DNA from: Acaryochloris marina S15
Lineage (GTDB): Bacteria > Cyanobacteriota > Cyanobacteriia > Thermosynechococcales > Thermosynechococcaceae
Length of the DNA: 32,000 nucleotides
NCBI RefSeq assembly: GCF_018336915.1
Contig: NZ_CP064923.1
Coordinates: forward strand, 3,390,001-3,422,000
Direction of reading: 5' to 3'
The notes under the pieces were generated by a model that worked only from the letters and a program-made list of their open reading frames with translations, was not told the origin of the DNA and made no database searches. Made by a program: the position numbers and the translations under genes. Below, piece after piece: positions 4,595 through 31,942 of the stretch. Every line of letters starts with the position of its first letter. The first letter of the stretch is position 1.

Positions 4595-6187
4595 TTACTG
4601 GAAGCTTTCTGGGGATTCTGATGGAGGCGGTGTTGAGAAATCAGGCCGAGCAAAGGGGTCGAACGGAGATGGCTCTGGGCTGGGAGCCAGGCTGTCAGGA
4701 TAGGAGTCTATTGGCGCTTGAAGAGTAGGATCCGGGCCTAGGGAATCAGGACTAAGAGGGACGGAGTCCTGAAGGGTGGGATCTGGCCCAATATCACCCT
4801 GATCAAACTGAGGATCAACCGTTGGTTCTTCTAAAGTTGAGGGAATGGGGGACTCAAGAGGTGTTTCAATCGGAGTGGGCAAAGTTTCTAATTCCCTTCT
4901 GGTCGTCCCTGGCTTAGGTAGAAAATCTTCATTTTGAACCGGGGCAGCCTTTGCAGGCACTTGCGGGTTCGCGAACTGATTCTGGTAATGAAACCGTAGC
5001 AACAGGCCAAAGGCAATTCCCACAACACCTGAGAGCACTGAACACACGATTAATGCTCGGAAGGGAAATCTGGGAGGCGCGGAATAAGGTTGGAGACGAG
5101 TGGTTGACACAGTCTGGCTGGGCTCCTGGCTAGGGACTGTTGATTCTGAAAGTGTTGTCGGAAGATCCTCAGTCTCAGGGGCTATAGATAATTGCTCTGA
5201 AGGGTAAGGAATTGCTGGGCCTGAAGGTTCTGAGGCTGGAGGTTCTGAGGCTGGAGGAGGAGAGGTCTCTAGAAGAGAAGAGTCTATTGAGGATACAGGT
5301 TTCGCAGTTAGGGAAGGGGAAGCTGCGCCTATGTTACCCGATTCTGTTGGGAATGATACAGGGGGAGAAGGTGCCTTGGGTAGGAGTTTCATCCACTCTG
5401 AGATAGATTGAGGGCGATGCTGAGGTTGCATCGCCATTCCCCGTAGCAGGGCAACAATCGTTGCCTGGCTTAGGTCTGGGTGATGCATTTCCAAGCGAAT
5501 ATGTTGCCGCTGGGAAGCTGCTATCGGCATTTGCCCCATCACCAAGGTGTATAAGGTTGCGGCTAATCCATAGATATCGGTTGTAACGGTTTGTTGACCT
5601 TGAGCGGATTCAGGTGCTGCATAGGCATGAACCAGAGGAGGAGGCAAACTAGGGTTGCTGGGTTGCCAAACCCAATTCACAAGCATCGGATGATCAGTAT
5701 GGGGAGGGTCAACAACATTTTTCGGTTGAACATCTCCATGCCGAAGCTGCTGCTGATGCGCTTGGTTCAAGCCGTTAGCAATTTGGGTGATTTGGGCAAT
5801 CGCCTCCGCTTCTGATAGGGGCTGATTTTTTCCATTTATGGCCCAGGTCTGTTCTGGTAGCTTGTCCCTGACCAGAAAGGGGAGAACCGAATCTACAAAA
5901 ACGTCTCGGATGGGTTCTAGGGAAGGATGTTTTAAGCGCTGCCAAGCTTGAGCTTCTTGTATGAAAGCATCGCGATGTAGGAGGATTTTTTTAGGGTGTT
6001 GACGGGACGGATTAAGGGTATTGATCAGAACAGGCTGCTGACTAGGTAAATGAGTGCCCTCATAGGTTAGCTGCAAGCCCTGATGCCTGACCAGTTGCTC
6101 TAAACGATACGTTCCTTTTTGTAAAAGTGTTCCGAGGGGAAGCAAAACCATTGTTGGCAGAGGGGGGCGCATGGTAGCTAACGGCAA
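4595..6187 (-). CDS. Membrane-anchored Ser/Thr protein kinase-like protein (predicted pseudokinase) with Pro-rich C-terminal region
   Basis: 530-aa ORF. The kinase fold is recognisable from FIQEAQAWQRLKHPS, LRHGDVQPKN, AYAAPE, TDIYGLAATLYTLVMGQMP and HRPQSISEW. However, the Gly-loop is degenerate (VRHQGLQ), VAIK is replaced by VLIN, and DFG is replaced by NWV. There is one TM helix (ALIVCSVLSGVVGIAFGLLL) followed by a Pro/Ser/Glu-rich tail. Confidence 0.75.
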   Translation of the reverse strand: MPLATMRPPLPTMVLLPLGTLLQKGTYRLEQLVRHQGLQLTYEGTHLPSQQPVLINTLNPSRQHPKKILLHRDAFIQEAQAWQRLKHPSLEPIRDVFVDSVLPFLVRDKLPEQTWAINGKNQPLSEAEAIAQITQIANGLNQAHQQQLRHGDVQPKNVVDPPHTDHPMLVNWVWQPSNPSLPPPLVHAYAAPESAQGQQTVTTDIYGLAATLYTLVMGQMPIAASQRQHIRLEMHHPDLSQATIVALLRGMAMQPQHRPQSISEWMKLLPKAPSPPVSFPTESGNIGAASPSLTAKPVSSIDSSLLETSPPPASEPPASEPSGPAIPYPSEQLSIAPETEDLPTTLSESTVPSQEPSQTVSTTRLQPYSAPPRFPFRALIVCSVLSGVVGIAFGLLLRFHYQNQFANPQVPAKAAPVQNEDFLPKPGTTRRELETLPTPIETPLESPIPSTLEEPTVDPQFDQGDIGPDPTLQDSVPLSPDSLGPDPTLQAPIDSYPDSLAPSPEPSPFDPFARPDFSTPPPSESPESFQ

Positions 6188-7312: not shown

Positions 7313-7382
7313 AGAGCAACGCTAGCATGTTGGTCTGAGAATTCGGCTTACCTGTGATTGAACATTACAAAACGGTGAAGTC
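7313..7382. repeat. Left copy of the direct repeat flanking the LRR-Roc-COR gene
   Basis: agagcaaCgctagc-N11-agaattcggCttacctgtgattgaacattacaaaacggtgaaGtc matches 10991..11060. The match is 13/14 in the first block, then an 11-nt variable block, then 43/45 in the core. Weaker similarity continues on both sides. Confidence 0.85.
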
Positions 7383-7453
7383 TTTTTGCCTGAAGGCACA
7401 GGTATTTCAATGTTTCAATTGGTCATATTGAAAGTTCGCAGAATTTCCATTAC

Positions 7454-10400
7454 TTACAAGCGTTTATCCTCCCGGAGCTTGTCCAGTTGGCCTCGGAAGT
7501 GTCCCTGCAATCCTTCGATCGATTCATATTCCTTGTAAAAGTGGCTTAAATTACTAAGCTTATCTTTGAAGTCACGCAGAGAAATAAGATCATCAACATT
7601 GACATCACTGGTTGAAACCGTGGTCTTCCGGAAGTAGGTATAGATCAGCGGTTTCTTAGTCTTCTTGAAGGTTTTGTATGCAACGTCAAATTCTTCCTCT
7701 GTGTATTTACCTGTTTTAGTCTTGAACAAGCTGACGAAAATGTCGCAGTGTCGAATTTTTTGGTTATATTCATTCTGGAGTCGGGTTGTCGACATGGCAT
7801 CAAGGAAGTTTTCCCAGCGGATAACTTCTAAGTAGATGCCTTGTTTGCGTAGACGGTCATTCTGCTGGCGAAAATATAGATCGAAAGCGTCGCGATCTTC
7901 GCGAAGCTCAGCTGAGGACGCTAGGAAGATCCGAATCGTCTTTTCCTTCACAGTATCCGCCGACTTAGATTGATTTGATTCTTCAGGTGTTTCTATCTCA
8001 CTATTGTCTTGAGGTAGCTCTTGTTTTGCTCTCGCCAACCATTGTTCTAGATTCATGCCATCCAGAAGTTCTAGCACGCTGACATCATGGTAGTCAGGTG
8101 GATTGGGGCACTCAATGGATGGTTTGCCTCTACTTTTCCGTTCAATTAATTTTTTCTGCTCGAACATTGCTGGTTCTGTTAGGTTCATGCAGGTTTCACA
8201 GATGCAAGGCACCCATTTACTGACTTTGTCTTTGAGTCCTTGGAAGCTGTCGTTTAGTGCATCAAGTTCACTGGCAATAGTGCTGAGCAGCGATTTTTTT
8301 TCTGGACCACGGCTGCGGAGAATAATTTCATTACCTTTTTCGGCTGTCACCACTAGCATCTTTGTTTCACCATGCTCGAATAAGGCACCCTGCAACCAAC
8401 ATAGATTCGGCTGCTTTACAAAACGGTGCACTCGAACGATCAGTCGGCTTACCAGGCCCCGAGGTAGAAACTCGTAGCGGTAGGTCAACATCAGATCGCC
8501 ACTCCTGGCCCAATTGTCTAGCTCTGAAGGCTTTGAAGGTGACAAGTGTTGTGGAACCAGCCATGTCTCTTTGTTCATATCCGGCAGCCGATAACATAGC
8601 TCGAAACGGACCATGAGGGCACGCAACTCTATTTCCTTATCCGCGTAGCCTTTTTTGGACCACAGACGATCGCAATCATCCAGGGTAAAGCGACCTTGCT
8701 GGGATTTGACATTTTCGTCGTCAAGGATACGAAATACTGCATCTGTCATCCACTGGTTCTGTAAAAATATAGTCCGTCGGAGTTCCCGTGGTTCCTGAAA
8801 GTGTAGGAACACTCCCAGGTCATGCAGGTACTGGCTTAGCTTTAGGGCCTTATCGAGATCTGCTTCAAGATGACCTGCATAGACTGTGAAGTAGTTATCC
8901 AGTGAGATATAGGGCTGGGTCTTTGCCAATTCCTTCAATTCATCGCGAATGGCAACCCATTTAGCTGGTACATCTTCACCAATATGTGGCAATTTCTGAA
9001 TGTAGTATTCTACCGCTTGGCGCAGTTTATCCGCCGCACATGGATGTTCCAGATTGCCCCGATGGAACTCCTCTACGTTGGGAAAGCGCCCTCTGATGCC
9101 CACCTCGTCGATCTGTTTACTGCGTCCGCCTTTCTCATTTTGAAAAATTAGTAGGGGACTAGCTGCGCTAAGGGTTTCAACTACCTCCAGCCAGAACTTA
9201 AAACCTTCGTCATAGACTGATTTGTGATCACTGCGGGTGTCATCGACCAATACATACAAGGAACGCTTTGTGAGAAAGAACTGATGGGTCGCATGATAAA
9301 TCTGCTGACCGCCAAAGTCCCAGGCATTAAGTCGAAACTTGCGTCCATTAGACATTGAGAACTCATGACGGTGGATATCGATGCCACGGGTTGTTTCGTC
9401 TTCGTTAGGCAGTCCTAATTCGGGCAGAAACATACGACGCAGAATGCTAGTTTTTCCAGCCCCACCCTCGCCAACAATTAGTAGTTTGGCTTCAAACAGC
9501 CGATCTACCCCCTGCGCTTCAACCTCATGAAAGTAATTGAGTACTGCCTCCGGCCCCTGCTTTACGATTTCCGGCGAGGGATGTGTTAGCGGACAATCTT
9601 CGACATAGATACCTACTCCCCGCCATGTTGCTTGGGACCAATGGATCGGTCGTTTGGCTAAGACCCACGATTTTAAAGGTGATAGATCTACCACGTTTGT
9701 CTCAGCAATGTTCAGTGTCACGAGTGGAAGCTGTGCTAATGGAGCAACCGTCGTTATCTGTTTATTTGAATTTAGATGTAGATCGTTGAGAGCTGTTTGG
9801 TGTTGACCAATGGCAATGACAACTGCATCACCCACATTGTTGTTACTCAGATTGAGTGACGAGAGCTGTTGGAGGTTCTCTGCGATGGCCCGCGCCCCGT
9901 CATCACCCACTTTGTTGTTTCTCAGATTGAGTGACGAGAGCTGTTGAAGGTTCTCTGCGATGGCCCGCGCCCCGTCATCACCCACATTGTTGTTTCTCAG
10001 ATTGAGTGACGAGAGCTGTTGGAGGTTCTCTGCAATGGCCCGCGCCCCGTCATCACCCACTTTGTTGCCACTCAGATCAAGGGACGAGAGCTGTTGGAGG
10101 TTCTCTACGATGGCCCGCGCCCCATCATCGCCCACTTCGTTGAAACTCAGATTGAGTGACGAGAGCTGTTGGAGGTTCTCTGCAATGGCCCGCGCCCCGT
10201 CATCACCCACATTGTTGTTACTCAGATTGAGTGACGAGAGCTGTTGGAGGTTCTCTGCGATGGCCCGCGCCCCATCATCGCCCACTTCGTTGAAACTCAG
10301 ATTGAGTGACGAGAGCTGTTGGAGGTTCTCTGCAATGGCCCGCGCCCCGTCATCACCCACTTCGTTGTCACTCAGATCAAGTGACGAGAGCTGTTGGAGG

Positions 10401-10885
10401 TTCTCTGCGATGGCCCGCGCCCCATCATCGCCCACTTCGTTGAAACTCAGATTGAGTGACGAGAGCTGTTGGAGGTTCTCTGCGATGGCCCGCGCCCCGT
10501 CAGCGCCCACTTCGTTGTCACTCAGATCAAGTGACGAGAGCTGTTGGAGGTTCTCTGCGATGGCAGTGATGTCTGTATCCTGCAGGCTGAGGGACCAAAA
10601 GGTGAGAGTTTGCAACCGATTGAGTCGCAATAGTTCAAGGGGGAGACTAGATAACTGGGTGGTAAGTTGGAATACAACGCGCCCCTGAAACTCCTTTGGC
10701 CAATTGTCCATTGATGGTGAAAGGCTAACTTCTGGTCCAAAGAGGGCTAGGTCAGTCCGATGTTCATTGCTGAGCCGCATTAGTAGATCGGGCAATTCAT
10801 CTGGATTTATGCGCTGCAGCCCAGTTTCTCCAGTCATATTAGGTACTCCCAGCTTGTCCATCGGCTTTTTTTGGGTATTGCCCAC
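7454..10885 (-). CDS. ROCO-family multidomain protein: LRR - Roc GTPase - COR - C-terminal TIR-like domain
   Basis: Uninterrupted 1143-aa ORF. It has ten 25-aa LRR units (ENLQQLSSLxLSxNxVGDDGARAIA), a P-loop (GEGGAGKTS) and switch II (WDFGGQ). COR hallmarks are VPAKWVAIRDEL..PYISLDNYF, LSQYLHDLGVFLHF and FELCYRL..WLVPQHL. The C-terminal pattern IRIFLASSAELREDRDAF..CDIFVSLF..GKYTEEEF..PLIYTYF resembles TIR/DUF4062-type domains. Confidence 0.9.
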   Translation of the reverse strand: MGNTQKKPMDKLGVPNMTGETGLQRINPDELPDLLMRLSNEHRTDLALFGPEVSLSPSMDNWPKEFQGRVVFQLTTQLSSLPLELLRLNRLQTLTFWSLSLQDTDITAIAENLQQLSSLDLSDNEVGADGARAIAENLQQLSSLNLSFNEVGDDGARAIAENLQQLSSLDLSDNEVGDDGARAIAENLQQLSSLNLSFNEVGDDGARAIAENLQQLSSLNLSNNNVGDDGARAIAENLQQLSSLNLSFNEVGDDGARAIVENLQQLSSLDLSGNKVGDDGARAIAENLQQLSSLNLRNNNVGDDGARAIAENLQQLSSLNLRNNKVGDDGARAIAENLQQLSSLNLSNNNVGDAVVIAIGQHQTALNDLHLNSNKQITTVAPLAQLPLVTLNIAETNVVDLSPLKSWVLAKRPIHWSQATWRGVGIYVEDCPLTHPSPEIVKQGPEAVLNYFHEVEAQGVDRLFEAKLLIVGEGGAGKTSILRRMFLPELGLPNEDETTRGIDIHRHEFSMSNGRKFRLNAWDFGGQQIYHATHQFFLTKRSLYVLVDDTRSDHKSVYDEGFKFWLEVVETLSAASPLLIFQNEKGGRSKQIDEVGIRGRFPNVEEFHRGNLEHPCAADKLRQAVEYYIQKLPHIGEDVPAKWVAIRDELKELAKTQPYISLDNYFTVYAGHLEADLDKALKLSQYLHDLGVFLHFQEPRELRRTIFLQNQWMTDAVFRILDDENVKSQQGRFTLDDCDRLWSKKGYADKEIELRALMVRFELCYRLPDMNKETWLVPQHLSPSKPSELDNWARSGDLMLTYRYEFLPRGLVSRLIVRVHRFVKQPNLCWLQGALFEHGETKMLVVTAEKGNEIILRSRGPEKKSLLSTIASELDALNDSFQGLKDKVSKWVPCICETCMNLTEPAMFEQKKLIERKSRGKPSIECPNPPDYHDVSVLELLDGMNLEQWLARAKQELPQDNSEIETPEESNQSKSADTVKEKTIRIFLASSAELREDRDAFDLYFRQQNDRLRKQGIYLEVIRWENFLDAMSTTRLQNEYNQKIRHCDIFVSLFKTKTGKYTEEEFDVAYKTFKKTKKPLIYTYFRKTTVSTSDVNVDDLISLRDFKDKLSNLSHFYKEYESIEGLQGHFRGQLDKLREDKRL
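7457..7939 (-). other. TIR-like (STIR-superfamily, DUF4062-like pattern) domain plus C-terminal helical tail, aa 983-1143 of the ROCO protein
   Basis: Alternating strand and helix segments: IRIFLASS / YLEVIRWE / CDIFVSLF / PLIYTYF. An acidic EEE (aa 1063-1065, nt 7691-7699) follows the third strand. The assignment rests on remembered family patterns, not on a search. Confidence 0.6.
8051..8992 (-). other. COR (C-terminal of Roc) domain, aa ~632-945
   Basis: PAKWVAIRDELKELAKTQPYISLDNYF, YLHDLGVFLHFQ, IFLQNQWMTDAVFRILD and FELCYRLPDMNKETWLVPQHL. It ends in a Cys motif, CICETC..(26 aa)..C. Confidence 0.8.
8993..9490 (-). other. Roc (Ras of complex proteins) GTPase domain, aa ~466-631
   Basis: G1 is GEGGAGKTS (nt 9446-9472), switch I is TTRGIDI, and G3 is DFGGQ. 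The G4 NKxD motif is not canonical (FQNEKGG / SKQID). Confidence 0.85.
9686..10654 (-). other. Leucine-rich repeat region (RI-like 25-aa units followed by degenerate units), aa ~78-400
   Basis: The LxxLxLxxNxVG periodicity is visible directly in the translation. Confidence 0.9.
9831..10580. repeat. Ten in-frame 75-bp tandem repeats (coding, LRR units)
   Basis: Period of exactly 75 nt. Unit 10131-10205 is identical 75/75 to unit 10281-10355. Blocks 10281-10430 and 10431-10580 form a near-identical 150-bp super-unit. Confidence 0.95.
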
Positions 10886-10990: not shown

Positions 10991-11060
10991 AGAGCAATGC
11001 TAGCCCTATGACACCAGAATTCGGGTTACCTGTGATTGAACATTACAAAACGGTGAAATC
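10991..11060. repeat. Right copy of the direct repeat flanking the LRR-Roc-COR gene
   Basis: Matches 7313..7382 in the same orientation. It lies 64 bp upstream of the pip ATG and about 105 bp upstream of the ROCO gene start. Confidence 0.85.
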
Positions 11061-11123
11061 AGTGGTCCTGAGTCGGGAGACCTTTTATCTTGAAGGACAA
11101 GAGATAGCTGTTGGACCTCCAAA

Positions 11124-28023: not shown

Positions 28024-29265
28024 GGCACTTCGAAAAAAAGAATTGAATGTTTCCTAGGACATCACAACAGCTCAATCAAACTTGGTCCAGCCCAATGAAT
28101 TTGAAGAAGTCTGCATTTAGGGGCAAATCAGCGCCCCATCTCGCTTGATTGGGACTGTTTAGGCATACTGAGTCTGCAGTTCCTTTTTGCGCCAAAACAC
28201 ATAGCGTCTCAAGTTATAGGCCAAATCCTTCAGACCGAGTTGAGCACGGACTCGCTTCATCCCAATACAGCGGACCTGCTTGCCTCCCAAATTCATTACC
28301 CATGCCCCAAAGACATGTTCAATCTTAGCGCGCACCTTCGATTTACCCCGATTCGTTTCTTTTTGCTCTTCGGTTAATGGATGATTGCGATACCCTCGCT
28401 CATGAATTTGGCTGACATAGCCAATGGCTTCGAGTCCTGCTTCTAACGCTTCGCTGCGATAGGCACTGTCAGCCCAAATTTCATCGGCGTCATTCTCTCC
28501 ATCCAAGATGTCGCAAAAAGGCTGGGAGTCATGGACGGATGCGTCGGTCACCTGATGCTGGCGGATAAACCCATAGGCAGCATCAATATTGATATGGTTT
28601 TTGTAGCCAAAGTGGCTTTTGCCATTCTTTTTGGTCCATCGGGCGTCGGTATCTTTGTGAGACTGTTTATGAGGCTTATCTTTCCACTCAGGGGGGATGT
28701 CGCCTTGTTTGATCTGTTTGTTTTCTTCGCGAGTATTGCGTTGAATAGGAACTGGCACTAGGGTCGCATCAATGATTTGACCGCCTTTAGCCGTATACCC
28801 ACACCCTGCTAAAAACTGGTTAAAGGTTGCAAAAAGCTCCTCTATCAAATCGGCGTCACTCAGGTGCTGGCGAAATAGCCACACGGTCGTTGAATCGGGT
28901 ACTTCATCCTCTGGAGACAAACCTAGAAATCGGCGAAATGAGAGTCTGTCATGGGTTTGATATTCCAACTCTTCATCACTCAGGTTATACAGTTGCTGAA
29001 GGATTAACAGCTTCAATAGCAACAGTCTATCGATGGGTTTACGGCCTGCTTTGCTTTTGCGCTCTGGTTGGGGAAGTTGCTCTAAGCAACGGCGGAAGAT
29101 CGCCCAGTCTATGAGGCAATTGATCTCGCTTAAGCTGTCTTTGCGTGCTTCTAGCTGCTCACGGCGATGTTTGATTCTGCCAAAGCCTTTGGATTGCATG
29201 GCGAATTATCCTGTGAGGGCTGGGTCATATTCTCAATATTAAGGCTTTCTATTTTTCGAAGTGCC
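28024..29265 (-). mobile_element. IS5-family insertion sequence, 1242 bp, apparently intact
   Basis: The terminal inverted repeats are GGCACTTCGAAAAAAAGAA and GGCACTTCGAAAAATAGAA (18/19). It has a single transposase ORF and is flanked by CTCCAG direct repeats. Confidence 0.85.
28159..29199 (-). CDS. IS5-family DDE transposase
   Basis: 346 aa. The N-terminus is DUF772-like (LLLKLLILQQLYNLSDEELEYQTHDRLSFRRFLGL). The DDE region includes IIDATLV, WADSAYRS and RAKIEHVFG..LAYNLRR. Confidence 0.9.
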   Translation of the reverse strand: MQSKGFGRIKHRREQLEARKDSLSEINCLIDWAIFRRCLEQLPQPERKSKAGRKPIDRLLLLKLLILQQLYNLSDEELEYQTHDRLSFRRFLGLSPEDEVPDSTTVWLFRQHLSDADLIEELFATFNQFLAGCGYTAKGGQIIDATLVPVPIQRNTREENKQIKQGDIPPEWKDKPHKQSHKDTDARWTKKNGKSHFGYKNHINIDAAYGFIRQHQVTDASVHDSQPFCDILDGENDADEIWADSAYRSEALEAGLEAIGYVSQIHERGYRNHPLTEEQKETNRGKSKVRAKIEHVFGAWVMNLGGKQVRCIGMKRVRAQLGLKDLAYNLRRYVFWRKKELQTQYA

Positions 29266-29271: not shown

Positions 29272-30263
29272 TAATAGCGTGTAGAGATTAACTGCATAAT
29301 TTGGGAATCAGCACCATTAGATTGGACGCCACGCTAAGAGGATGTTTGAAAAAGCTCCAGCAAAGTATGCCAATCGTCTGACCTTAATGCCAATCATAGC
29401 CAGATAAATGAATGTTTCACTAGCCTGTGCTAGAGACTCACAATTCCATTCAATCGACAACGCCAGTTCCACCAGTCAAAGGTGCGCCCAGGAGAAAAGT
29501 CTCCAGACACATCCTTCCCACAAGACCTAAAACATAGCGTTGAGAGCCAGTCCTTGGGTGTCCTAGCAGGGCTGTTTCAAGTTCACCTGAGGTGATTTAA
29601 AAGTACTGGAGATACGTGAGCAGAAATAATGTTATGAAAAATCTAGGTGCACGATAATTTTGGTTTCAGATTTTCTTTCAAGAACTTAAAAAAGCCCTGG
29701 GTGTCCTCGACATTTAGCTGCAGTTAGGAGGCATTCAAGGAGTTCTCCTTTCTCTAAAGTAAGGTCGATTTACACATTGCTCCTTGAAGCTAGGGTTTGG
29801 CAATGACAGTCTACTCACAAAGAGCTTTTTTATAGAAATTTCGATTTCTCACATATCCTCTCAGCCATTTACAGAAAACCACGAAAACTCATAAGAGCAG
29901 AACGCTTTCATAGCGAAATATAGTCAAATAATTTACCCAGAAAAATACCAAGAAGATTTTTTATAAGGAATTTGCGTATTTTTTTTATTTAATTCAGATA
30001 GGTAAGAAGAGTAATCAATTTAACCTCATAATTTTTTGCCATATTTTAGCAGTATTTTGAAATTTACTTTCCATAATCTCTCTAATTAGCTTAATTAAAA
30101 TTACTTCATAAAAGCTCGAATCAAGTCTTGCAATTAGCTAAAAATAACTATTATTATTTTTCTGATTATTTCAATAACTTAAAAATATATTCATCCCTTT
30201 TTACGACTTTCATAAATATATCTAAAAGGTGCATAGCATCAATTTCATTGACCTTTTCATGCA

Positions 30264-30845
30264 TTGAGTTCTATGTTTAGGCTTGATTATCCCCCTCTTG
30301 CTAACTGGGCTGGATTTATTGCTGCCCTGCTGTATGTCATTACTTTATTGCCCACTATCTTAAGGGTGGTATTTCCATCTACTAAAACAACAGGTATTCC
30401 TAAAAGCTTGCTAATTCAGCGCCGACTTCTTGGGATTATTGCTTTTTTAATGTCTGTCATCCACGGATACTGGCTAGTCTCTAAGAGAGAACTCGACTTT
30501 TTAGACTTCCAAACTTATTGGATTTATTGCCAGGGAATTATTACGTTTCTCATATTTACTTTACTCGCAATCACCTCTAATGACTGGAGTGTAAAAAAGC
30601 TTAAAAAGAACTGGAAAAAGCTTCATCAACTCACTTACTTTGCAATGTTCTTGCTGTTGTGGCATGTTATCGACAAAATGTGGGGCCATTGGACTTGGGT
30701 AACCCCACCATCCCTAGTCATAACAGGGGCAATTACGATTTTATTTTTAGTTCGAATGATTCGTGAAAATCATCAATCAGATAAGCCCAAAGGGCAGAAT
30801 CCTGAGTCACCAGCAACCAAAGAAACGGCCTCCAAAACTGACTAA
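30264..30845 (+). CDS. MsrQ/YedZ-like ferric-reductase-type transmembrane haem-b protein
   Basis: 193 aa with about 5-6 TM segments. QRRLLGIIAFLMSVIHGY and TSNDWSVKKLKKNWKKLHQLTYFAMFLLLWHV align by eye with E. coli MsrQ RRLLGLWCFAWATLHL and [23 protein letters not shown]..IHYL. The ORF-track start is a TTG; the first ATG is at 30273. Confidence 0.75.
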   Translation: MSSMFRLDYPPLANWAGFIAALLYVITLLPTILRVVFPSTKTTGIPKSLLIQRRLLGIIAFLMSVIHGYWLVSKRELDFLDFQTYWIYCQGIITFLIFTLLAITSNDWSVKKLKKNWKKLHQLTYFAMFLLLWHVIDKMWGHWTWVTPPSLVITGAITILFLVRMIRENHQSDKPKGQNPESPATKETASKTD

Positions 30846-30901
30846 TGGATGGCTGCTTGTAATCACTCAATCACCCTCAACCATTTACTAGGAAAAATAA
30901 A

Positions 30902-31942
30902 ATGGCAAAAACCACTCAAAAAAAGAACTGGGTACTGTTCCTTTTGATGTCTACTGCAGCCACTTTATATGGACTGAGAGCCCATGAGCAGCTAGGCCGT
31001 ACCGTTGCTTATCAAGCTGCACCATCTCAGTCTATATCGACCATTCACAAGACCCTGCAAACGCTAAAAAATAATAGTGTATGGATCTATGCGATCGCAC
31101 TCAGTCCCGATGGTGAAACCTTGGCGAGTGGGCGCTATGACGGCAAGATTGAGCTATGGAATTTACGCACTGGCACCTTACGTCAAACCCTGAAAGCTCA
31201 TGAAGATGCCGTCTCATCTTTAACAATCAGTGCTGATGGCCAAACATTAATCAGCGGTAGCTGGGATAACCGCATTAATTTATGGGACTTACACACTGGG
31301 AACCATCTGCATACTCTAGAAGATGCAGCAGATGATGTTACTGCCATCGCCCTCAGTCCAGACGGCAAATCCTTGGCTGCCAGTGCTGCAGATAAAACTA
31401 TCAGACTCTGGGATTTGAAGTCGAGCAGTCAACTGCAGGTCCAGAAAGCCCCCACTGTCGTTCTGTCTTTAGCCTTTAGTCCTGATGGGCAGGTTCTAGC
31501 TGGGGGGAGCCGGGATGGTGTCGTACGGTTCTGGCAGCGGGATAGTCTTTCTCCTAGAGTTGCCCTAGAGGGACATCAGGGTGCGGTACAGTCGGTCTCC
31601 TTTAGTCCCGATGGCACCTTATTGGCCAGTGGCAGTGAAGACCAGAGCATGAAAGTTTGGCATCTCTCCGAAGGGAAACTCCTGCATACCCTCCAGGGCC
31701 ATAATGCACCTGTCTTATCGGTTGCCTTTAGTCCAGATGGCCGCAACTTAGCCAGTGGGAGTTATGACCGCACCATTAAAATTTGGAATCCTGTATCCGG
31801 TCGGCCCCTCAAAAATTTGGTCGGACATACCAAGTCAGTGCAATCGATCCAATTTAGTCCGGATAGTCAAACCTTAGTGAGTTCCGGCAGTGATGCCACC
31901 GTAAGAGTTTGGCCGATTGTGGCAGCGACGGCTCTCCAGTAA
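30902..31942 (+). CDS. Exported or membrane-anchored seven-bladed WD40 repeat protein
   Basis: 346 aa. A basic N-terminus and hydrophobic segment (KKNWVLFLLMSTAATLYGL) are followed by seven units of pattern ..V.S.AFSPDG..LASGS.D.T.K.W. Confidence 0.9.
   Translation: MAKTTQKKNWVLFLLMSTAATLYGLRAHEQLGRTVAYQAAPSQSISTIHKTLQTLKNNSVWIYAIALSPDGETLASGRYDGKIELWNLRTGTLRQTLKAHEDAVSSLTISADGQTLISGSWDNRINLWDLHTGNHLHTLEDAADDVTAIALSPDGKSLAASAADKTIRLWDLKSSSQLQVQKAPTVVLSLAFSPDGQVLAGGSRDGVVRFWQRDSLSPRVALEGHQGAVQSVSFSPDGTLLASGSEDQSMKVWHLSEGKLLHTLQGHNAPVLSVAFSPDGRNLASGSYDRTIKIWNPVSGRPLKNLVGHTKSVQSIQFSPDSQTLVSSGSDATVRVWPIVAATALQ

Follow-up and report, generated by a model that had tools for sequence, protein, structure and literature searches.

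The window analysed here, a 32,000-nucleotide stretch of the Acaryochloris marina S15 genome (contig NZ_CP064923.1, positions 3,390,001 to 3,422,000), carries on its reverse strand a gene (7454..10885) for the protein WP_212661983.1, which combines leucine-rich repeats (LRRs), a Ras-like G domain (Roc), a COR domain and a C-terminal TIR-like module. We consider it moderately likely that the product of this gene is a ROCO-type (AP-GTPase) sensor against invaders, cytoplasmic and made of a single chain, similar in its working to nucleotide-binding leucine-rich-repeat receptors (NLRs) and equipped with a probable effector that cleaves nicotinamide adenine dinucleotide (NAD+). The order of sensor, switch and effector, proposed earlier in a sequence-only reading of the same stretch, is backed by the displacement of the effector by TIR_2 in sister proteins, by the occurrence of the effector module in STAND proteins and in the PADLOC candidate PDC-S60, by the fast evolution of the LRRs and by the accessory status of the gene.

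The gene is a single unbroken open reading frame (ORF; 7454..10885, minus strand) of 1143 codons counted from a GTG, with the stop codon inside these coordinates. Its product is 100% identical to WP_212661983.1/QUY40769.1 of Acaryochloris marina, encoded on a 5.88-Mb contig and publicly named only 'COR domain-containing protein'. Translation probably begins with the ATG at 10837 (M17), 16 codons downstream of the GTG, because both the public annotation (1127 aa) and the checked homologues begin at this methionine. The probable coding sequence therefore covers 7454-10837 on the minus strand and encodes 1127 aa. Residue numbers given below follow the 1143-codon ORF; those of the public protein are lower by 16.

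Four Pfam families were detected above their thresholds in a scan of the full protein: LRR_6 in nine stretches between aa ~80 and 400 (E 3.5e-46), Roc (PF08477; aa 467-584; E 2.8e-20; 73 bits against a cutoff of 27), COR-A (PF16095; aa 640-781; E 1.4e-35), and COR-B (PF25497; aa 798-943; E 8e-28). In a phmmer search against the sequences of the PDB, the best-matching structures were those of Chlorobium tepidum Roco (CtRoco; 8r4b/6hlu; E ~1e-80), followed by Methanosarcina Roco2 (1e-50) and LRRK2 (~1e-30). Judged by these similarities, membership of WP_212661983.1 in the ROCO family is secure. The unbroken reading frame, the LRRs, the Roc and COR domains, the P-loop GEGGAGKTS at aa 472-480 and the WDFGGQ motif, all named in the sequence-only reading, were thus recovered.

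The Roc G domain, as delimited by Pfam, phmmer and motif alignment, occupies aa 466-632 (8990..9490, minus strand). Its G1 P-loop GEGGAGKTS (9446-9472, minus strand) and G3 motif WDFGGQ are canonical and conserved in the family. The G4 position deviates. Namely, the segment FQNEKGG (aa 581-587; 9125-9145, minus strand), which aligns with NKID of Methanosarcina Roco2, has NEKGG in place of NKxD, and this is the case in ~89% of 102 family members. The conserved columns are N (99%), E (99%) and K (97%), while Asp occupies the last position in 11%. This degenerate G4 may alter the nucleotide specificity of Roc. No central NACHT, NB-ARC or AAA+ NTPase domain was detected in the protein, in which AAA_16 and AAA_23 gave marginal P-loop matches (E 0.4-0.6). 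WP_212661983.1 would be NLR-like in its working and is no member of the STAND NLRs or Avs proteins, its switch being Roc.

COR-A lies at 8543..8968 (minus strand) and was also aligned with Methanosarcina Roco2 (4wnr); COR-B lies at 8057..8494 (minus strand). Close to its end, ahead of the junction to the effector, COR-B carries a four-cysteine motif, C894-x-C896-x2-C899...C926 (nt 8108-8206). The CxCxxC core was present in 120 of 120 relatives, including those with a TIR_2 effector, and the motif may form a zinc site at the hinge between switch and effector. COR-B ends in VSVLELLDG and is joined to the effector by an acidic, variable linker (aa 944-983; 7937..8056, minus strand), which could not be aligned among relatives.

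The sensor region, defined by Pfam, repeat and identity analysis, spans aa 78-430 (9596..10654, minus strand). It contains ten near-identical units of 25 residues (aa 108-357; nt 9815-10564), corresponding to a period of 75 nt in the DNA, with the central copies being 88-93% identical to each other. Where the units differ, they do so mostly at their positions 13, 15, 16 and 18, which correspond to x in the strand motif LxLxxNxV. In known LRR structures, these positions line the concave, ligand-binding face. When full-length relatives with a length of 900 aa or more were compared (65 sequences for the LRRs, 65-85 depending on the region), the median identity was 41% in the N-terminus and LRRs, as compared to 70% in Roc, 58% in COR, and 64% in the effector domain. 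The region before the P-loop varies in length from 249 to 580 aa, and the number of repeats differs among relatives. The sensor is therefore hypervariable, in line with the earlier suggestion of diversifying LRRs. A 242-aa ORF ('MARAPSSPT...', repeated) on the opposite strand of the repeats (9960-10688, plus strand) is almost certainly an artefact of the 75-nt periodicity and no gene.

The C-terminal module (aa 984-1143; 7457..7936, minus strand) was characterized by scans with hidden Markov models (HMMs), by structural models and by motifs, and is distantly related to DUF4062 and to the NPHP3 domain, which are also referred to as 'NIR'. Its segment IRIF begins at aa 984, one residue later than proposed initially. 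In the scan of the full protein, this domain matched NPHP3 (E 7.7e-4) and DUF4062 (E 0.12), while none of the TIR models appeared at E <= 1. When aa 974-1143 were scanned alone, the best Pfam match was again NPHP3 (PF25022; E 2.1e-5; 25 bits; cutoff 33), followed by TIR_2 (E 5.7e-4; 20.8 bits; cutoff 28) and DUF4062 (PF13271; E 5e-3; 17.4 bits; cutoff 24.7). Single scans of 61 homologous domains at E <= 0.01 returned DUF4062 in 36, NPHP3 in 34 and TIR_2 in 34 of them; no further family recurred, and the scores seen for DUF4062 and NPHP3 were under the cutoffs. All of the 50%-identity representatives listed were close to the consensus of the family and thus unsuited for linking it to bona fide DUF4062.

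A match was also found among the models of PADLOC: the N-terminal domain of the candidate PDC-S60 matches the effector at E 7.8e-13. The match covers positions 3-164 of 906, i.e. the effector domain alone, so that the full-length model was not recovered; nothing on PDC-S60 was found in the literature. The identification of the module as a divergent TIR_2 was rejected, since hhalign detected no relationship to the TIR_2 module of sister proteins (probability 0.3%). Since its scores fall below the thresholds of both DUF4062 and NPHP3, we assign the C-terminal domain, on the basis of profile comparisons, to a divergent subfamily that is sister to DUF4062/NIR in the TIR/NDT-like assemblage (NDT, nucleoside 2'-deoxyribosyltransferase); it is no canonical TIR domain. 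The TIR-like module seen in the sequence-only reading is thus real, while its closest families are NPHP3 and DUF4062, both sub-threshold, and no TIR model passes.

The AlphaFold2 model of aa 974-1143 (predicted local distance difference test score, pLDDT, 84.8; predicted template modelling score, pTM, 0.81) displays a strict (beta-alpha)5 alternation, with a (beta-alpha)4-5 core at aa 984-1098 followed by a helical extension. The core was modelled separately (aa 979-1098; pLDDT 81) and compared with known structures by Foldseek. The matches, all of them weak, included lumazine synthases, nucleoside 2'-deoxyribosyltransferases, the CMP N-glycosidase BcmB (template modelling score, TM, 0.56; root-mean-square deviation, rmsd, 2.7 Å), the TIR domain of SfSTING, and BcThsB. 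The two latter had E values of 0.02-0.04 and TM ~0.5. Nucleoside deoxyribosyltransferases also came out on top of a fold search in the viral library (best E 7.9e-4), followed by a TIR/WD40 protein. The model has the (beta-alpha)5 topology expected of a TIR-like fold; the weak fold matches lean towards nucleoside deoxyribosyltransferases.

Residues conserved among the 61 homologues include F987, W1024-E1025 and KYT-EEE-F (aa 1060-1066), all of which are invariant or nearly so. The acidic triad E1063-E1064-E1065 (7691..7699, minus strand), noticed previously as a counterpart of the catalytic Glu of TIR NADases, is located at the start of helix C in the model; E1064 and E1065 are invariant, and E1063 is conserved in at least 90% of the homologues. 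The motifs of DUF4062 domains listed in the Evangelion preprint are an N-terminal aromatic residue, Q/W/E, and an SYT region whose catalytic Glu precedes an aromatic residue. The conserved residues found here fit the wording of this description. Going by the published motif descriptions, we infer that the strongest candidate for the catalytic residue is E1065, with an aromatic residue directly after it.

The effector is a module that can be exchanged. Among the 120 closest Roc-COR relatives, 114 possess the NIR-like module, one is truncated, and five, including proteins of Thiodictyon and Chlorobaculum, carry TIR_2. These five sisters are 61-73% identical to WP_212661983.1 through LRR-Roc-COR, and either module follows the same conserved junction VSVLELLDG (aa 935-943). 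The replacement is a bona fide TIR_2 (43.6 bits; cutoff 28). On these comparisons, the exchange is a non-homologous displacement, a hallmark of conflict systems.

An exhaustive profile search with the effector domain retrieved 6,739 representative clusters, 841 of which matched at E <= 1e-30. In the best 140 of the 6,739, the domain was C-terminal in 63, N-terminal in 39, standalone in 23, and internal or otherwise placed in 15. The N-terminal cases that were scanned are NACHT, NB-ARC or AAA_16 proteins with TPR/HEAT repeats, with E values of ~1e-63 to the family profile. One protein of 880 aa (P0352) has an internal NIR-like domain between a CHAT protease and an FGE-sulfatase domain, which is a further conflict-system-like architecture.

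Full-length relatives of WP_212661983.1 with identities of 58-78% occur in Cyanobacteria, Nitrospira, Gamma- and Betaproteobacteria, Desulfuromonas, and Planctomycetota, and the family comprises thousands of proteins from at least five phyla. At the same time, WP_212661983.1 is alone in its 90%-identity cluster in a collection of ~15 billion sequences. The combination of a lone cluster with relatives at such identities across phyla implies horizontal spread.

The accessory nature of the gene is also seen at its insertion site. The ROCO gene is located between the gene for a CCG-domain protein and the proline iminopeptidase gene (pip). For comparison of this site, 80 cyanobacterial species were fetched via the CCG gene. 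The block tkt-fabF-acpP(-pip)|CCG was conserved in most of those with enough flanking sequence, and a ROCO match within 10 kb was found in none of the 80. In the closest Acaryochloris genome (CCG identity 93%), the gap between pip and CCG is only 169 bp. The insert in A. marina S15 measures 3.6 kb and is bracketed by a direct repeat, with the left copy on the CCG side at 7338..7393 and the right copy on the pip side at 11016..11071 (both on the plus strand). The two copies are 88% identical over 56 nt and share a 29-nt identical core. The empty site of Acaryochloris sp. IP29b_bin.148 has one copy of the repeat, which runs into CCG-side sequence at one end and into pip-side sequence at the other. 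Accordingly, the ROCO gene is an accessory gene, inserted cleanly and singly into a conserved housekeeping block. The repeat could have arisen by target duplication; the reverse event, a deletion between the repeats, could also explain the empty site. A dispersed element was rejected as the source of the repeat, which occurs exactly twice in the window. No tRNA integration site was found in the window and no integrase or transposase gene inside the 3.6-kb insert. In a second Acaryochloris genome (L009:7178-8182), pip and CCG are separated by ~1 kb of unassigned sequence with no ROCO similarity, and the kinase side of CCG is not syntenic.

Eleven genomic contexts of relatives were examined in other organisms. 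In about six of the 11, toxin-antitoxin pairs, transposases, a ThsB-like TIR gene, SLATT_2 or nSTAND/NACHT genes were present; the rest are housekeeping. Across the 11 contexts, no conserved partner gene was identified and synteny was shared only between two species of Nitrospira. These two have the ROCO locus in common, and N. allomarina possesses an additional MafB19-like deaminase gene and a 272-aa gene inserted just downstream (L088:14992-16537 versus L001). In one metagenomic genome (L004:7091-14644), a ThsB-like TIR gene and a gene for a 762-aa protein with a marginal TPR_12 match (E 0.0034; 18 bits) directly precede the ROCO-NIR homologue in the same orientation, a SLATT_2 gene follows it, and ISL3 and DDE transposases are located nearby. 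This patch may represent a multi-gene defence patch or operon.

These data are consistent with the following mechanism. The LRR solenoid would bind an invader-derived ligand, probably a phage protein, via the variable x positions of its strand motif. Binding would free Roc-COR from the LRRs, and a nucleotide-dependent dimer/monomer cycle, as in Chlorobium Roco, would change its state. The two C-terminal NIR-like domains would then rearrange from an auto-inhibited to an active assembly, comparable to the auto-inhibited NIR pairing of KpSwz, in which the BB loops occlude the active site (2026 preprint). The active assembly would cleave the N-glycosidic bond of NAD+ or of a related nucleotide via E1065 or E1064, and the cleavage of NAD+ would stop the infected cell, i.e. 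act as abortive infection.

An effector that does not deplete NAD+ is an unlikely alternative. The protein would still be a defence protein with the same sensor and switch, but it would act on nucleosides or nucleotides as an N-glycosidase or a transferase similar to NDT, CMP hydrolase or 'DRHyd', or else produce a signalling nucleotide used by a partner whose gene lies elsewhere. The fold matches with the best geometry and the best E values, which are nucleoside 2'-deoxyribosyltransferases and BcmB and not TIRs, agree with such an enzyme, as does the listing of DRHyd beside TIR among the effectors of AP-GTPases (Kaur et al., 2021) and the fact that DUF4062 of Avs2 was originally annotated as a CMP hydrolase. 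However, all DUF4062/NIR domains with detected activity so far hydrolyse NAD(P)+, yielding ADP-ribose and nicotinamide. The one relative that is encoded directly downstream of a ThsB-like TIR gene and adjoins a SLATT_2 gene also speaks for this alternative; the lack of a conserved partner gene in the 11 contexts speaks against it.

We also regard it as improbable that the protein is a ROCO signalling protein with housekeeping or regulatory duties outside immunity. Its C-terminal domain would then be catalytically silent and serve as a scaffold for interaction or oligomerisation, like animal TIRs, NPHP3 and NWD1, and the partner bound by the LRRs would be endogenous. The top Pfam match to NPHP3, which is inactive in vitro, the housekeeping neighbourhood, the stable synteny between two Nitrospira species, and the high conservation of effector and switch across phyla would all suit this explanation. 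It does not easily account for the absence of the gene at this locus from the closest Acaryochloris genomes and from 80 other cyanobacteria, for the isolation of the protein in its 90% cluster, or for sisters that swap the output domain for an unrelated TIR_2. Also, this output domain is common to NACHT/NB-ARC proteins and a PADLOC candidate, and an invariant acidic pair is kept at the position of the catalytic Glu. Finally, a secreted or injected LRR effector or inter-bacterial toxin delivering the TIR-like domain is very improbable: LRR proteins are common as host-interaction effectors and several relatives are named 'internalin A' by JGI, but these names reflect LRR similarity only, the polypeptide has a central, cytoplasmic G-domain switch, the hosts (Acaryochloris, Nitrospira, purple sulfur bacteria) are free-living autotrophs, and no secretion-system, immunity-gene or Rhs/PT-type delivery context was seen in the 11 loci.

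Several points weigh against the interpretation of WP_212661983.1 as an NLR-like immune sensor with an NAD-cleaving effector. The G4 guanine-specificity motif is degenerate family-wide, so that the label 'GTPase' is itself unproven. CtRoco becomes monomeric on binding GTP, whereas NADases of the TIR type usually depend on oligomerisation; how switch and effector would be coupled is thus not obvious. None of the TIR, DUF4062 and NPHP3 models reached its curated cutoff with the C-terminal domain, and the family profile matched no PDB sequence even at E <= 10. The Foldseek matches of the core model are weak (E 1e-3 to 5e-2). With the whole C-terminal model, Ras/KRas folds were retrieved first (TM ~0.5; rmsd 5-7 Å). 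A Ras fold was rejected, and these matches are read as generic three-layer alpha/beta similarity, because a search with only the core no longer returned them, HMMs of Ras or P-loop families did not match, and the domain is strictly (beta-alpha)5. The genes around the ROCO gene are housekeeping genes with no PADLOC system, both in A. marina S15 and in four or five of the other contexts, and the figure of about six in 11 conflict-related contexts is a raw count; for NIR domains, an enrichment of 20% versus 3.9% has been reported. The domains of human NPHP3, NWD1 and NWD2 had no NADase activity in vitro (2026 preprints). No experimental study of a bacterial ROCO protein in defence or immunity was found in the searchable literature, where the statement of the sequence-only reading that no Roc-COR defence system has been characterised experimentally still holds.

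ROCO proteins have been studied heavily for LRRK2 and Parkinson's disease, with the bacterial Rocos serving as structural models, and none of the bacterial Rocos known to us has a physiological role that is established. An immune sensor would supply such a role. It would also mean that NLR-type logic of sensor, switch and effector arose around a GTPase, in addition to STAND ATPases, and it would add a branch controlled by Roc-COR to the DUF4062/NIR NADase effectors. Tentatively, and with less confidence than for the single gene, this can be extended to the LRR-Roc-COR-NIR family as a whole, which might be a widespread, mobile single-gene immune receptor, in which Roc-COR replaces the STAND ATPase and controls a new TIR-like NADase subfamily, maybe with altered nucleotide specificity. 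If true, it would offer the first experimental handle on an ancestral immune function of the ROCO/LRRK2 lineage. Since the family is abundant, the system is a single gene and the point mutants are clear, the hypothesis is cheap to test.

The genes around the ROCO gene are, in order, those for UvrB, a histidine kinase, a Ser/Thr kinase and the CCG-domain protein, then the ROCO gene itself and pip; beyond pip follow ACP, FabF, transketolase, MoaA, Pth, RRF, PyrH and others. PADLOC called no system among the neighbours in the window, as had been expected. The islet-like context assumed earlier, taken as a defence island, was rejected: the surroundings are housekeeping genes, and the ROCO gene is a single-gene insertion among them. 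The Ser/Thr kinase gene (4595-6187, minus strand), located ~1.3 kb from the ROCO gene and encoding a Pro-rich tail, matches the PD-T4-6 kinase models of PADLOC (E 7.6e-26) and also MkoA; the match to PD-T4-6 is probably generic kinase similarity. Matches of UvrB to PADLOC helicase models were set aside, as they look like generic domain similarity. Near the 3' end of the window, a DDE transposase gene (28159-29199) adjoins a patch of low GC content (0.35 at 29500-31000) with a ferric-reductase-like gene, and a 346-aa protein encoded at 30902-31942 matches the PADLOC model HEAT-ARM_XIII (E 1e-36). The two 346-aa ORFs in this region were considered as copies of an insertion sequence, which was rejected as there is no repeat between them.

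Among structurally characterised proteins, CtRoco (3dpu, 6hlu, 8r4b) and LRRK2 share the order LRR-Roc-COR with WP_212661983.1. The CtRoco switch is a nucleotide-dependent dimer/monomer cycle, with the LRRs folding back on Roc-COR. The output of LRRK2 is a kinase, and the C-terminal region of CtRoco did not align with the effector domain described here; the family also has the deviant G4 motif NEKGG. With the STAND NLRs (Avs, bacterial NACHT proteins, plant TNLs), WP_212661983.1 shares the tripartite logic of a repeat sensor, a nucleoside triphosphate-dependent switch and a death effector, and its effector module literally occurs in NACHT/NB-ARC proteins. However, the place of the AAA+ ATPase is taken by a Ras-like TRAFAC GTPase whose dimerisation domain is COR, and the order is inverted, with an N-terminal sensor and a C-terminal effector. 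Diversifying LRRs are also a feature of brown-algal LRR-ROCO proteins, eukaryotic proposed pathogen receptors that diversify by exon shuffling; no TIR-like effector is reported in the abstract of that study (PMC11378527).

The effector itself is best compared with the DUF4062 ('NIR') domains that three 2026 preprints describe as TIR-like, Glu-dependent NADases in Swarozyc, PsAvs2, Vulcan/Vesta, Evangelion and human TEP1. The (beta-alpha)5 fold of these domains is predicted here too, counterparts of their N-terminal aromatic residue and of their W-E and (S/K)YT-E-x-E-aromatic motifs are conserved as judged by the published description, and both occur as modules at the N-terminus of STAND/NLR-like proteins. 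The structural neighbours reported for DUF4062 are CMP hydrolase, ribosyltransferases and TIRs (Le Mouellic et al., 10.64898/2026.09.04.749371), which is essentially the list obtained with our core model. In WP_212661983.1, the domain is C-terminal and coupled to Roc-COR, an arrangement absent from the three preprints, which make no mention of Roc, ROCO or GTPase.

The closest precedent is the computational survey of Kaur, Iyer, Burroughs and Aravind (eLife 2021; PMC8195603, Fig. 6D), who predicted prokaryotic AP-GTPase (Roc)-COR conflict systems with fast-evolving N-terminal LRRs, an AP-GTPase, COR, and any one of at least 24 C-terminal domains, among which are TIR, DRHyd, caspase, trypsin, FGS, EADs and GT4. 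WP_212661983.1 agrees with this class in uniting LRRs, AP-GTPase, COR and a C-terminal effector in one polypeptide, and both effector displacement and rapid LRR evolution were found here. The description as an undescribed conflict system in the sequence-only reading does not stand, as the class had been predicted already. No experimental test of it was found in the later literature searched, where the term AP-GTPase did not appear and no experiment followed the survey. The concept itself is therefore not new. Kaur et al. stress multicellular bacteria, whereas A. marina is unicellular, and their survey singled out neither this subfamily nor a DUF4062/NIR identity of the effector. The details added here are a sub-threshold DUF4062/NIR relative as the effector and the deviant G4 motif.

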